From Sedimentisphaerales bacterium (lineage in GTDB: Bacteria > Planctomycetota > Phycisphaerae > Sedimentisphaerales > SM23-30), in the NCBI GenBank assembly GCA_963666285.1, contig OY762711.1: a stretch of 64,000 bases of DNA; one strand, written 5' to 3'. Positions 52,482-58,974 of the stretch are shown in pieces. The position numbers and the translations under genes are program-made. The notes beneath the pieces were generated by a model. The model was not told the DNA's origin. It worked only from the letters and a program-made list of their open reading frames with translations, and ran no database searches. Position 1 is the stretch's first letter. Each line of letters starts with the position of its first letter.

Positions 52482-55400
52482 TCATTGTAACATAATCGAC
52501 TCTTCATACTCACTAAATTTTATCCCAAAACTCGCCTCACTTCCCTGCTCTCCTATATCTGCTTTACGAACACTTATCGAATACTTACACTTCTCCAGGT
52601 CAATCGTCGCAGATACCTTCTCCCCACTGCTCCCCTTCGGCGACTTATACTTAAACACCTTCTTCTCCCCCTGCCTGACAATATTCTCAGCTTCCAGGGT
52701 CACACTGTAATCACCATAGGTAATAACAATATCCTCCGCCGCAATATCCGCACTCACATCCGCCACAACTATCTGACCCTGCACACTCAAACTGTCAGTC
52801 CCGGCCTTCTTACCAGCCTTAAACTTCACCTTATCAACCGTTAGCACATCTTCAACCCCACTCATCAATTCCACTGGCATACTCTTCTTGCCATTAATCA
52901 CATCAACCCCACCGCCTGAACCTAACACTCCGCGATCATAACCAGTCGCCGAAGCCGTACAACCTGTTCCTGTTTCAATCACAACTGTTACAGGTGCTTC
53001 CAAACCGGTCAGGTTCAGCCCCTTGCCAATATACTGGAAAGTATCTGTAGTTAAATCGAAGCTATATTGCGATGCACCATTCTTAACCCTATACAACTGT
53101 TTCTCATTAGTGCCCAAATATATCGTCTGATTATGCACAACCGTCATATTACTACCGGCATAGATACTGAAATTCACCTGACCTTCAAACAACTCAGCAG
53201 GTATCTTAAACAAAGAACCCTTCAAACTGATACTGTCACCATTATCACCTCGAGACCGACCTGCCTTAACCGTCATCTTATCCAACACAAAACGATAGCT
53301 CAGACCCTGTACTCCCATATTTCCAATCTCAGCTAAAAACGGAGTGCCATCTTCAATATCCCAAACCTGCTCGTATCCATTTTCTGTCTCATCCACAAAA
53401 TCCCAGCCTGCATCAAGAAAAGTTCCAATATTCACCATCTCGACAGAACTCTTTCCGATAGCACCCAGGCTACCATCTCCAGATTCGCCAATACCAGAAC
53501 TGTCAACATCCCAGAAACTCTTCTGTATTCCGCCAATCGGATAAACGGTTACACCTCCTGAACCGGCAGCAGCACCCAAAACAAAATCATCGGTTATTAT
53601 TAAATCTATTAAACCTGCATCCTGTATCGCAGCGGCAAATCCGCCCGTCACTCCCTCTCCACCGGAAACCGTACCGCCCGAATAACAGTATTTAACGTAA
53701 CCTGTATTCAAACCTGCGAAACCGCCCGCACTATAATCGCTGGCAACCAGGCCGGTACAGTAACTGTTTTCTATATCTCCTGTATTACGCCCAACAAATC
53801 CGCCGCTATAGCCATATACACTATCGTATTCATAACCCAGCATACTACTAACTGCCATACCGGTATAACTCCGATCAATTGCCCCATAATTTTCACCAGC
53901 CAATCCGCCTTCAATATGGTTATAGGCATAACAATATATATCTAATCCCCCTGCTGCACTACACGACGATATATAGCCGTAATTCTGTCCGACAAAACCA
54001 CCTGTAATATAATACGGAATCTCGCCCTTAACACTTGGATCAGTATAGCAATACAAAGCTGAAACGCTTCTCCTGTCTGCCATATTATCATACAATATAC
54101 TCCATCAAAATGGCAGTTATTGATTATTCCATTATTTACTACTGCAATACCACCAGTAACACTGGAATAATACGACCTCATTACAAGGTTATCAAATGTA
54201 ATATTCTTTACAACTCCATAATTACTGCCAAAGAACCCACAACAACCGCCTAATTCCATATTTGATATTTTATACCCATCGCCGTCAAATGTACCATAGA
54301 AATCGCCTTGAATATAACTGTCACATACACTGCTAGACGATGTAAGCGAAATATCCACACCTTCCAGATCTATATCATTTGCCAACCTGTAAAACCCGAA
54401 CTGCAAACCACCATTAGCTGCAAACTCTTTCAAGTCTTCAGCATCAGCAATAATAAACGGATCGTCATTGGTACCGCTTCCCGCCAAAACGGTATCAACA
54501 TCCAGCAGATACAGCGGCTCAAAACCGGCATCCGCCTCCCATGCCAGTTTAGGCATACAGCCTTCCTCTATCGCCCATATATCATCCGTACCGTCAGTAT
54601 CATCACCAACAAAATCAAATCCTGCAAAACTGGATTGCTCGGTTAGCTCTGAATCACTTAACGCCACTTCGCTGCCCTCACCTGTTTCTCTCTCATCTGT
54701 TGCACCACTGTATTCATAATAATAACTGTTACTTATAACCGGCATTGCTTGAATAGAATATGCTCCTTCAGGTAATATTGGAAAATAACCAGCAAGACCT
54801 CCCGCATTTTCCAAACCCGTTACCCTGCCTGCCGCATAACTTTTTGTGATATTACCCCCGGAATGACTTCCAACCAGCCCGCCAACATTTTCTAATCCCA
54901 TAACCGAACATACAGAATATGAATTAATTATTCCTTTACTCATATTATTACCACTTGTATATCCTACCAGCCCACCAACATTTTCCTTACCCGAAACAAT
55001 CCCAGAGCTATAACACCCTTCTATCAACCCGGAACTGCTGAAACCTGCTAATGCTCCGCAATATTTGCCGGAACTTTTAACAGACACATCCTCTAAACCC
55101 AGGTTCTTAACAATTCCTTTCAAATCACCAAACAATCCGCAATAAGACCATCCTGTAATAGAAAGATTACTTATTACATGACCTCCCCCATCAAAAACAC
55201 CGCCATAATACGATGAATAAGAGGATGGCAAAGTTAAAGCATTCGGGTCATCATTCGGAGGAAGAACTGAAACCATCATATTTGGGGACCCAATAACAGC
55301 ACGGTCATAAACACCGATTGCTGATAAATCCAGGTCTGTTTCTAAACGCGTATGAGCACTTCTCCAATATTTATGAAAATTACTTACATCTGCAAACTCT

Positions 55401-55564
55401 TTAAAATCCGCCAGATCTTCTATCAAATACGGATCAGATTCCGTCCCGCTGCCCGGCAAAACACCACCTGCGGCATAAACCAATGACTCTACACACAACA
55501 ACAATACAAAGATGTAATTAATAATTTTACTCACTTGCAAACTCCAATTTTTCTTTATTCTCAT
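52482..55564 (-). pseudogene. Secreted GLUG-motif repeat protein split by a frameshift (ORFs 53942-55564 and 52482-54095)
   Basis: GSGTESDPYLI and NVGGLVG/GGFVG GLUG repeats continue across the frame change near 54010-54100; real lesion or assembly error. Confidence 0.7.
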
Positions 55565-56199
55565 CTTAATTATTTTTCAGACTTCAGCTTATCTGGTAGG
55601 CCTACAATAGCCGACCAAAACAAAATATCAATTTTCAATACACAATAATACCAATATATTCCGAATGATGCCACATTATTGTCTCCTGTATTTTATTAAA
55701 ACATTAAAACTATAATGTGACAACTTATCACAGGACCAGACACCGTTTCCTTCTCACTTCTCGCCTCTTTCTTCTAACTCTTCTCATCCTTCAGGTGCCG
55801 CAATTTTGATTGAACTTTACCTACGCGTCAGCTTTAAAACAAGTCGTGAGCGACAGCGAATTATTCCTGATGTCAACGTACATCAGGACACCTCAATTCT
55901 TCACTATTCACTTTTAGTTCTTCACTTGTCGCACAGCGGCCTCTGCGAGCAACAGTATTTTTTTTCGTGTTCTTTCGTGAATTTTCTATGAAGCCAGAAT
56001 GCAACATTAATTTTCTAATTTTATTCATTTTTGCTATAATTCCTTTATCTTGCAAAGGATAGGGCTCTGCTGAGGAGCAACCCGAGCGTTGCAAGTTGTC
56101 AAGAAGCCGGGGCGGTTTTACACCGCCTCGTTTTTTGCTTTTTGACCTTATGCGATAAACCTATTTAAAACAATTTTCGCGTAGCGAATCATTATTTAC

Positions 56200-56350
56200 C
56201 TGATTGTTTCATCTTTCTATCCGGAGTGTCCGAGGCTGTATTTTACGCCATGGTTCCATTATATATATTGCGATACGGCTTAATTTTCGTGTCAGGTTCA
56301 AAACCCAAATGCACGACCAAGGTTCCGTATCGATTTCAATCGGGCAAAAT
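56200..56350 (-). ncRNA. Bridge/seek RNA of the IS110 element
   Basis: Stem cgatacgg/ccgtatcg (56332-56271) enclosing guide-TG-GGTTTTGAACC-TG-guide; the guides match the insertion site; RNA ends are approximate. Confidence 0.8.
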
Positions 56351-56384
56351 CATAGGTAATATTTATATTTTACTTATATTGGTA

Positions 56385-57431
56385 TCAAACACTTTGCAAT
56401 TCAGGCATCTGCCAACTTGTCCCATCTCGCATCATCGCCCACAATCGTACGAACAACCGTCGGGCTGTAGCTACTATCGCTATTTTTGCACGAGTTTTAC
56501 TTCCCCTCTTTATTCTTTCGTATGTTTCTTTTATCCATGGATTCCAACGCAAACCCAGCCAGCAAACCTCAACAAGTAATGCTCGCAATAACCTATTGCC
56601 ATATTTACTTATCCGCCCATGACGGTCTGTATTACCTGATTGGTACTGACGCGGTGTCATACCAATATAGCTGCCAACTTGTTTGCAATTCTTAAATCTA
56701 TGTGGATCATCAATATAAGCTGCAACTGCCTCTGCCAGACGTGGGCCAACTCCGGGAACAGTCTGTAATAGTTTTACCTTTTCATCAGTACTATTTAACT
56801 CTTCCAGTTTATCTTCAACTACTTGCAAAGCGTCTGTTAATTGTTCCAGTAATATAAGCTCGCTCCATAGATTGCCTTTCCAGAGCTCATCTGGTTTAAC
56901 TTTATCCATTGGCATAGCCATACTTCTTAACTGTTCCAGATTCTGCTTAGACCAGCACTTTCTGCCTGACGGCAACGAATACGCCTGGGCATTTAATAAA
57001 GAACGAATAGTATTTTTTACCTGAGTTATCCGTTCTGTAAGGCTCTGGCGATAATTAATTAAAGATCGTTTCTCTCGAATTTCCTTTTTAGGAACATAGA
57101 CAGTTGATAAATCTCCTAAAGCAGCACGCTTGGCCAGCCAAAATGCATCCTTTTTATCTGTTTTCTTCTTCAATTTTCTGCCAGACCATTCGCCGGTATT
57201 AGTATTTGCCACTTCATATTTTAATTCCAGGGTGTCAAAAAGGTCACAAATCCAGCCTATGATATCACAAGCCTCAAATACAATAAGATCAGCAGGGTGA
57301 GATACTGCCAGGTCATGAAGCTCTTGAGGGTTAGTCTTAAACGACTTATATATAGCCTTACAGCTTTTTACCTCATAAAAACAAACTACACTCTTGAATT
57401 TTCCTAAATCAATTGACATAATAGTCTTCAT
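56385..57431 (-). CDS. IS110-family DEDD transposase/recombinase
   Basis: SIDLGK (D), VFEAC (E), KTDKKDA (DD), TVPGVGP, GMTPRQYQSG (Ser) and ISKYGNRLLR motifs; intact 348 aa. Confidence 0.96.
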   Translation of the reverse strand: MKTIMSIDLGKFKSVVCFYEVKSCKAIYKSFKTNPQELHDLAVSHPADLIVFEACDIIGWICDLFDTLELKYEVANTNTGEWSGRKLKKKTDKKDAFWLAKRAALGDLSTVYVPKKEIREKRSLINYRQSLTERITQVKNTIRSLLNAQAYSLPSGRKCWSKQNLEQLRSMAMPMDKVKPDELWKGNLWSELILLEQLTDALQVVEDKLEELNSTDEKVKLLQTVPGVGPRLAEAVAAYIDDPHRFKNCKQVGSYIGMTPRQYQSGNTDRHGRISKYGNRLLRALLVEVCWLGLRWNPWIKETYERIKRGSKTRAKIAIVATARRLFVRLWAMMRDGTSWQMPELQSV

Positions 57432-58974
57432 AGCCAGAATACTCCGTATAAAATTGGTTAAATATTTGAGCGTCCCTGTGACAGCTCGTGCTAAAATTAT
57501 TGTGTATTATAACACAAGCCATGCTACAGGAATATTCTGGCTTTCATTGTATTTTCGTGGTTGACATCTTTTTCAGAATTCAGACTTCAAACTTCAGACT
57601 TCAGGTGCAAACAATTTTGATATAATCTTTACTCCCGCGTCAGCTTTAAAACAAGCCGTGAGCCGCAGCGAATTATTCCTGATGTCAACGTACATCAGGA
57701 CACCATTTTAATTTTTCATTTAGCAAAGTTCGCCACTCCAAACTTTTCAACATCCTTTTTACATTCTTTTTCATCCTTCATCCTTTACCCTTTACACTTT
57801 GATGCCGCTCCGCGGCATCTGGTCTGCCCACAAACCAAAAATAACAACTTACATCAATTCACGAAAAATCCCCTCCCCGCCGCAACTCTTCCCTGAACCC
57901 ACCTCGCACTCATTCATATATCCCCGCACTCTTCAATTTCATTCCGTTTTTTAACATCTCCTTCACCCACTACTCTCACACTCACACTTATAAATCAATT
58001 AGCCTCGCCGCCCCCCTTTAAAACAGGTCGCGTAGCGACACCTTCACATCATTGGACAAGTCCAATGATGTGCCCCAGTGCGCAGCACGAAGTTTATCTG
58101 CTGACAGCTGGCAGCTAGTCGCTCGCCGCTGTTGGCTCTTGATTTTTGATACTTTATCCTTTATACTTTATACTTCAGAAACGCTTTTCATTTCTTTCTT
58201 TATCAGTATGCATCTGCTTATCTGTGGTTCTCTTTTCAGGCGTTAGCCGTTTAAATAAGCTGTCCGCGAAGCGGACACCTCAACTCTTACCTCTTATCTC
58301 TAACTTTTTACCTACCTCCCCGTCTCCGCTTCGTTCCCGTCCGCATACCGCCGCACCCATTCAACGTTCCGCCGTATACTGTCCGCGGCCCGCAATTCAC
58401 CGCCGCTCAAATCCATTTGCCTTTTCACCGCCGTTCACCCGCCGCGCTGCCCCGTATATATGCCGCACACCTCCCGTCACCCATCAATCAGCCGCGAGCG
58501 GTAGCGAGCAACATTCCCTGGCACCTTAAACCTGATCCCTGGCACCTGATTTTCTCGAAAAAATCACCGCGTTTTTACAACCACCAAATCGCGAAAATCT
58601 AAAATCTCCAAAATTTTTATCCTGCTTTCCCACAACCCTTTACAATCTTCCACACCAACCATCCCACCCAAAAAATCAGCGCACTTTCGACATACCGTCC
58701 AATTGTAGAGAGCCGACAAAAAATGATTACCAGCAAAAATCAGCTCTCGCTAAAACTTAACAACGACGAAAACTTCGTCTTTAATATAAACAACGCTCAA
58801 TAAAAACTAAATATTTGAATACAGTCTCGGCAAATCAGAATGATTTGCCCTCTAAAATTGACAATCTCAATTCGTCGCCGAGCGAAGCGAGGTATTGTCC
58901 AGACTATGTCTGATCCGAGCGAAGCGAGGTATTGTCCAGGCTTTGCCTGGTGCCCGCTTTACCGCAATGGCTGC

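Follow-up and report, generated by a model that had tools for sequence, protein, structure and literature searches.

An IS1111-group insertion sequence in a phased TTCGTG repeat, with a predicted guide RNA for that repeat

How does a mobile element come to sit, copy after copy, in one kind of short direct repeat? The question is raised by a stretch of DNA of 64,000 nucleotides (nt), called here the window (the whole stretch analysed, from contig OY762711.1 of the Sedimentisphaerales bacterium assembly GCA_963666285.1), in which an IS110-family insertion sequence (IS) interrupts a repeat built of TTCGTG units. Elements that carry their own folded guide RNA are a kind first described in 2024. 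An earlier note on this locus had claimed that the element is an intact one of that kind, with guides directed against the multi-copy TTCGTG repeat, and its copies, its open reading frame (ORF), the structure predicted for its RNA and the co-variation of guides with targets all agree with this claim. The answer that we give is that the element is, with high probability, an intact IS1111-group IS encoding a DEDD recombinase, and that the non-coding region on its 3' side specifies a folded guide RNA, about 155 nt long, for the TTCGTG repeat.

The borders of the element and of its target were read by comparing nine copies of the IS with uninterrupted sites in the same genome.

55986–57551, minus strand: insertion sequence, minimal extent 1,566 base pairs (bp)
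55964–55985, plus strand: target, window-left part, TTCGTG TTCT TTCGTG AATTTT (two repeat units, spacer and T run)
57552–57561, plus strand: target, window-right part, TTTTCGTGGT (T run and third repeat unit)

The minimal extent leaves out the T run that is common to the element and the target on both sides (55982–55985, and from 57552 onwards). Nine full-length copies of the IS were found in the genome, four of them 100% identical over 1,566 bp and the remaining five at 99.94, 99.87, 99.36, 99.11 and 98.98% identity. In the Logan contigs of three runs, the IS formed a single unitig (55983–57563) with a depth of 229/274, compared with 26–43 for neighbouring single-copy contigs, which agrees with the IS being multi-copy. 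All copies had the same orientation (9/9), and, as would be expected if the claim of the earlier note was right, all were in TTCGTG-type sites (9/9). The window-right flank, TTTTCGTGGT, was identical in 8/8 copies displayed, the ninth copy having been missed by the exact anchor and its right flank left unread, and the window-left flank was CGTGAATTT(T) in 7/9 copies, CGTGTTTTT in one and TGTGTATTT in one.

Removal of the IS restores a three-unit TTCGTG repeat with a 10-nt period, as had been proposed, and exactly this sequence (...TTCGTGTTCTTTCGTGAATTTTCGTGGTT...) occurs uninterrupted at five places in the genome. A search with the abutted site, allowing for up to two mismatches, gave eight matches: these five, two uninterrupted sites with two mismatches, and one flank of an occupied copy. 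In the orientation of the transposase, the target reads CCACGAAAA^TTCACGAA. Most copies had a left run of three T and a right run of four, while the copy in the window and one other had four on both sides. Apart from this shared T run the insertion was not accompanied by target duplication, as is the case in the IS1111 group, and the crossover is not exactly placeable within the T run, an ambiguity that had been recognized before.

Seven of the nine copies lie in the same larger repeat family, as if the element, although RNA-guided by design, were now represented by fossils spread through segmental duplication of a larger repeat that holds the target. The contigs of runs X1–X3 showed neither a joint nor a circle junction, a point that would favour such fossils and weigh against an active element, but contigs cannot show rare forms, and thus their silence bears on nothing. 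What is difficult to reconcile with segmental duplication is that the flanks beyond about 30–60 nt differ between copies, and that two copies are in unrelated contexts, one in a spacer of a CRISPR array and one at C1:6009887. Moreover, in addition to the complete identity of four copies, the transposase ORF was open in 9/9 copies, and the 140-nt core of the RNA was identical in 9/9, even though three copies had 9–13 substitutions elsewhere. About three changes would be expected in the RNA core and none was seen, which lends slight support to constraint. We consider spread as fossils unlikely, and favour an intact, guided element.

A BLAST search of the genome with the element revealed no solitary copy of the RNA region, such as an ssr9-like small-RNA module. 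In run X3 only, which represents a second sample, contigs break at 56279–56281, the 3' edge of what is described below as the 3' guide loop; one of them runs on into 162 nt of unrelated DNA, and the depth is 196 to the right of the break and 71 to the left. A truncated or recombined IS copy in that strain may be the cause.

The family of the element was assigned from its transposase and its ends.

56385–57431, minus strand: transposase gene, 348 amino acids (aa), DEDD/RuvC-like domain and C-terminal domain with the motif GMTPRQYQSG (from the ORF and profiles)
55988–56000, minus strand: subterminal inverted repeat of the right end, ATGAAGCCAGAAT on the plus strand, with its partner ATTCTGGCTTTCAT at 57534–57547 (read directly)

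The transposase matched Pfam profiles PF01548 (51.7 bits, cut-off 29) and PF02371 (93 bits, cut-off 21.3), as well as the NCBIfam profile NF033542, 'IS110 family RNA-guided transposase' (213.5 bits, cut-off 140). The sequence GMTPRQYQSG in its C-terminal domain conforms to the G-x-x-P-x-x-x-x-S/T-G motif described for the IS110 family (PMC11187229). Its only relatives of solved structure were the transposases of IS621 and ISCro4, which are distant and were matched over the C-terminal domain only. In the transposase orientation, the non-coding sequence measures 116 nt from the left end to the start codon and 399 nt downstream of the stop codon. Both ends carry the subterminal inverted repeat ATGAA(A)GCCAGAAT, which begins 2–4 nt inside the termini and consists of 8 contiguous bp and 5 further bp with a 1-nt indel between them, within the 7–17 bp typical of the IS1111 group; the ATGAAAGCCAG / CTGGCTTCATAG ends recur in homologues. 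A long downstream non-coding region and subterminal repeats are described as characteristic of the IS1111 group and not of the IS110/IS621 group (PMC11187229; PMC11208160). It is because of these two features that the element is placed in the IS1111 group, and every sequence-level hallmark of that group which could be checked was present in it. The earlier note had used IS621 as its model of the layout. As a member of the IS1111 group, with the RNA downstream and with subterminal repeats, the element does not follow that model.

The long non-coding region downstream of the transposase gene is where the guide RNA was predicted.

56195–56349, minus strand: predicted seekRNA or bridge RNA of about 155 nt, which helix P1 closes (56337–56349 pairs with 56195–56206)
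56325–56332 with 56271–56278, minus strand: outer stem of the target-binding stem-loop, 8 bp, CGAUACGG / CCGUAUCG (from folds)
56318–56321 with 56279–56282, minus strand: closing helix CUUG / UAAG, 4 bp, which frames the two guide loops (RNAalifold columns 22–25 / 65–68)
56308–56317, minus strand: 5' target-guide loop GUCGUGCAUU, 10 nt, complementary to the right target half on its top strand (AAT-T-CACGA-A in the transposase orientation)
56293–56307, minus strand: inner hairpin UGGGU-UUUGA-ACCUG between the guide loops (RNAalifold columns 36–40 / 50–54, and folds)
56283–56292, minus strand: 3' target-guide loop ACACGAAAAU, 10 nt, identical to the left target half and core as read on the top strand

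Homologous elements were obtained from whole-genome searches of relatives (101 and 401 genomes) and from one metagenome scan (80 loci); a scan of genome contigs with the single protein gave only two distant relatives. The homologues share 42–66% transposase identity and have the same ends, and the RNA region of 23 lineages was aligned. Helix P1 was present in all of them, with 9–17 bp of differing sequence (23/23, checked sequence by sequence), and it encloses two modules. The outer stem of the target-binding stem-loop comprised 5–9 bp, again of different sequences, in 21/23 lineages, the other two (4 and 3 bp) being segments short at the 5' end. The four positions of the closing helix showed the pair types CG:20 UA:2, CG:12 UA:7 UG:4, CG:14 UA:9 and GU:23, in this order. 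Overall, RNAalifold predicted 17 pairs across the 23 lineages, 14 of which had compensatory changes. When aligned by MAFFT, the clades differed by two columns in the placement of the outer stem's 5' strand, for which reason the stems were checked in each sequence and not by a covariance model.

The three strings that the earlier note had quoted, TCGTGCATTT, CACGAAAATT and CCGGATAGAAA, are the reverse complements of 56307–56316, 56282–56291 and 56214–56224, respectively, as it had said. For the two target guides, the strings are real, and only their limits had to be redrawn: the loops occupy 56308–56317 and 56283–56292, 10 nt each, and are bounded by the co-varying 4-bp helix. The 5' loop was complementary to its own flank at 8/10 positions, over AATTCACGAA. 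This flank was the best of 22 flanks for the loop, and the loop was the best of 23 loops for the flank. The 3' loop was identical to its own flank at 9/10 positions, so that it would pair with the bottom strand; here too the own flank was the best of 19 flanks, and the own loop the best of 23 loops for that flank. The footprints of the two loops on the target overlap by AAT. The stretch complementary to the top strand thus lies 5' of the stretch complementary to the bottom strand, with overlapping footprints, which is the order of seekRNAs if the 'top strand' of PMC11187229 is taken as the strand in the transposase orientation.

The decisive evidence came from the comparison of loops and targets across lineages, in which the loop columns were those fixed by the RNA alignment. 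The 3' loop matched its own left flank at a mean of 8.68/10 positions, as compared with 5.42 for the flanks of other lineages (n = 19), and the 5' loop matched its own right flank at a mean of 7.45/10, as compared with 4.23 for non-cognate flanks (n = 22). None of 10,000 permutations of the flank labels reached the observed sums, and the same was true in 12 lineages picked for their distinct targets; there were many distinct target types among the lineages. Guides therefore co-vary with targets across homologues (23 lineages, 0/10,000 permutations), as they should if the guide claim holds. The nearest relative, G017 (66% aa identity, 2 copies), provides an example: the homologous positions of its RNA read CGUGAAGAU and UUCAC, and its target is CCGTGAAGAT / AGTGAAG. 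Among the other relatives, the 5' loop of L059 matches AAGGGTTCGA, which resembles the T-arm of a transfer RNA, and the flanks of L088, L097 and L071 look coding-internal when inspected by eye (...SDNG / PEF...), possibly belonging to another transposase gene.

Several observations weigh against the guide reading. The lineages are related, and therefore the permutation figures overstate their independence. An exact match of 9 nt between the left junction and the non-coding region was reached by 37/500 dinucleotide shuffles, and such a match in the element alone is only modestly unusual; the strength of the guides comes from their position in a conserved RNA structure and from their co-variation with the targets of homologues. 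In addition, the minimum-energy fold pairs the two target loops with each other (UCGUG / CACGA) into one long hairpin, which would close the loop. The shuffles and this fold are what one would also expect if the stem-loop were a mere 3' structure or terminator of the messenger RNA, the likeness to the target a by-product of A/T-rich low complexity, and the target recognized by the protein alone. However, across the 23 lineages the loops change with the target and compensatory changes preserve the helices, no run of U follows the stem, and the RNA of IS1111 elements is reported to be experimentally essential and reprogrammable (PMC11187229), all of which makes this explanation highly improbable. 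The ability of the target loops to pair mutually, seen also in G017 and L078, follows from the target being a direct repeat.

Other points concern the fit of the loops. The 5' loop fits poorly in some close relatives (4/10 in L062 and L063, 6/10 in G017), and in several of them its best match lies one repeat unit further on, which counts against a perfect picture. The C in the 5' loop of the element described here matches 0/9 observed flanks, which have A, T or T at this position, and there is no site in the genome that the loops would match perfectly. Finally, a search of 55000–58500 against Rfam gave no relevant match at E ≤ 1, and one chance C/D-box match (E = 0.093). With these points taken into account, we still read the two loops as target guides.

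One further hairpin lies in the non-coding region, on the opposite strand.

56108–56130, plus strand (antisense to the transposase gene): GC hairpin resembling a terminator, with a T run behind it

GC-rich hairpins occur at the equivalent place in the non-coding regions of L020 and L062.

The second module inside P1 holds the candidate guide for the element itself.

56214–56220, minus strand: donor guide AUAGAAA, identical to the final bases of the right end (CATAG) together with the core AAA, 3' of the hairpin in the second module

The earlier note had pointed out that ccggATAGAAA matches the right end, and this proved correct: the stretch reads as a donor guide for the right end and core, and it co-varies with the core. 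The 3 nt that follow AUAG agreed with the 3 nt that follow CATAG at 2.82/3 positions in cognate pairs and at 2.06 in non-cognate ones (22 lineages), a value reached by 0/10,000 permutations. Where the nearest relatives have AAG, this element has AAA, a change seen simultaneously in its donor guide, its 3' target loop and its two flanks. For the other, transposase-proximal end, no convincing guide was found in this clade, as the note had already conceded, and this is a further point against the reading. The 10–15 nt located 5' of the donor-side hairpin were compared by eye with the left end in this element, G017, L062, L063, L070 and L078, and were rejected as a left-end guide, having only 3–5 complementary nt. 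In more distant relatives, AGUU(U) stands opposite AACT at the left end (by eye).

The arrangement of two modules, each a hairpin flanked by single strands, with a donor guide in one of them, could also fit the layout of IS621 in the IS110 group, in which the guide for the left target half comes first in the target loop and both donor guides are in the second loop. One donor guide is indeed present here, but the guide for the second donor side is unreadable in this clade, and we regard an IS621-type layout as very unlikely compared with the IS1111 layout.

These elements can be combined into a mechanism, which includes one more candidate feature at the right end.

55999–56004, minus strand: possible -35 box TTGCAT (pattern only), 16–17 nt from TACAAT (57546–57551) in the circle

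In the proposed mechanism, the RNA would be produced from the IS and closed by P1, and its stem-loop would offer two 10-nt single-stranded loops on either side of the small hairpin. Of these, GUCGUGCAUU (5') would pair with the right target half, on its top strand, and ACACGAAAAU (3') with the left half and core, on their bottom strand, so that their footprints would overlap by about 3 nt (AAT) at the crossover. The donor module, through AUAGAAA, would read the right end of the element and the same core. The complex of recombinase and RNA would excise the element as a circle with the joined ends ...CTTCATAG-AAA(A)-TACAATG..., in which TTGCAT-N16/17-TACAAT may form a junction promoter. Junction promoters are mentioned for the IS110/IS1111 family in PMC11187229 and PMC12288879, and the one suggested here is possible by analogy. 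The circle junction would then recombine with CACGAAAA^TTCACGA, the spacer that separates the second TTCGTG unit from the third, and the element would be inserted in one orientation, with no duplication beyond the shared A/T-run core. The element may be active at present.

What, then, is the repeat that the element uses? Exact TTCGTG arrays occur 27 times in the genome (19 with two units, 8 with three), and among TTCGTG pairs at distances of up to 30 nt, the spacing is 10 nt in 35, 9 nt in 6 and 19 nt in 4. A crude survey of the ORF neighbours of 28 arrays revealed no constant distance or orientation to ORFs; that the arrays are regulator sites beside a TTGACA box is a guess. At otherwise canonical sites (C1:2801865, 3804228, 4695124 and 918250), array variants with GAATTTCGTG are found, which have one T fewer and a 9-nt spacing, and which could be natural variants or excision footprints. 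A palindrome, CAGAATTCTG, located beside some targets was considered as a collapsed remnant of the inverted repeats, and was rejected as part of a heptamer run (TTCAGAA TTCTGAA). G-poor heptamer runs adjoin the phased array at 57577–57605 and 55750–55800 (TTCAGAC TTCAAAC TTCAGAC TTCAGG, and CTTCTCA-like units), and phased units of the CGCAGAG type beside the target (55936–55955) look like the targets that the related elements L049, L050 and L061 have. A longer repeat of about 65–70 nt has two copies in the window (55825–55892 and 57628–57698) and roughly 85–115 in the genome. It reads GCGnCAGC...GTGAGCnnCAGC, followed by a hairpin CCTGATGT-CAACGT-ACATCAGG and then by ACACC, after which about 50 of the copies carry a further conserved stretch. 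Rfam gave no match to this repeat, and nothing relevant in two uninterrupted target loci.

The TTCGTG arrays are also used by another element. A second IS110-family element of about 1,568 bp, with 36% transposase identity to the first, four copies (transposases at C1:1589823, 2394713, 5026826 and 5746309) and a long downstream non-coding region of its own, splits another subtype of the array, ACCACGAAT^GGACACGAATTC (the right side also given as GGACACGAATTCACACC). Two different guided elements thus use the same repeat family. Moreover, a type V-A CRISPR locus outside the window (C1:3248295–3250718), with cas12a (1,290 aa), cas4 and cas1 identified by Pfam and with 14 repeats, carries one copy of the first IS inside spacer 10 of 13. 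The spacer that it splits is likewise a TTCGTG repeat of three units. No protospacer for it was found in its own genome, and the three spacers beyond the IS are probably cut off from the leader transcript.

The closest relatives of the element, G017, L062, L063, L070 and L078 (58–66% identity), all lie, by the reading of both flanks, in repeats that are rich in purines and recur every 10 nt or so, and L065 (54%) is also in such a repeat, as read from its right flank only. The motifs of these repeats include CACGAAG, CACAGAG and GTGAAG, while more distant relatives are in unrelated sites. One might therefore imagine that the element and its closest relatives form an IS1111 clade specialized on short direct repeats phased at 10 bp (CACGAAA, CACGAAG, CACAGAG and GTGAAG), and that these repeats are an undescribed intergenic class, probably present also in phages, as a Cas12a spacer consists of one. 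If so, self-pairing of the guides could act as an RNA lock that is opened only on the recombinase or at the target, and the arrays would be shared landing pads in which the spacers, and not the repeat units, carry the address. We offer this as a speculation, and a rather doubtful one. A literature search, confined to listings and with supplements outside its scope, gave no paper in which IS110-family elements are described from the phased repeats or CRISPR spacers of this group of bacteria.

What is new here, namely the phased-repeat class of targets, the self-complementary guides and the insertion into a CRISPR spacer, is a matter of details and not of a new mechanism, and the understanding of the mechanism is unchanged by it. 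The finding matters as a clean natural example of guide reprogramming: the 23 related elements, with loops that follow their targets, are an internal control series, and could serve to train or test the prediction of IS1111 targets. It also widens the natural target range from palindromic repetitive extragenic palindromic (REP) sequences, attC sites and transposon ends to phased direct repeats, and provides a natural case in which target guides are able to pair mutually and one loop-position mismatch is tolerated at all nine insertion sites. Additionally, it marks the TTCGTG arrays as a real, recurrent feature of the genome that is worth explaining.

Among known systems, the element is most like the IS1111 elements ISEc11, ISPa11, ISKpn4 and ISPst6 (Siddiquee et al. 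2024, PMC11187229), a likeness based on described features and not on transposase identity, this element being known from its sequence alone. As described for them, its DEDD transposase is about 340–350 aa long and has a G-x-x-P-x4-SG motif, its ends carry subterminal inverted repeats, a long non-coding region follows the transposase gene, and the insertion into a multi-copy sequence is specific for site and orientation. It also shares with the seekRNAs of the IS1111 group a match to the top strand located 5' of that to the bottom strand, with overlapping footprints, the reverse of the IS110 type (PMC11187229). In contrast to their targets, which are a REP palindrome, an attC site and a transposon end, the target here is a direct repeat phased at 10 nt, and, unlike theirs as described there, its two target guides are complementary to each other. 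With IS621 (Durrant et al. 2024, PMC11208160; structure 8wt6) it shares the recombinase superfamily, the match (E = 3.5e-14 against the Protein Data Bank) covering residues 205–339 in the C-terminal domain only, and an RNA with a target module and a donor module that have a common core. IS621, however, has its RNA upstream, in the left end, as well as very short subterminal repeats and the reverse order of guides (PMC11208160). Like the REP-targeting ISPpu9, ISPpu10 and ISPa11 (PMC12288879), the element uses an abundant short intergenic repeat as a safe landing site and has several copies in one orientation, but the repeat is a phased direct one and not the palindrome described for those elements. 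As far as its sequence can tell, it would work like ISEc11, ISPa11 and ISKpn4.

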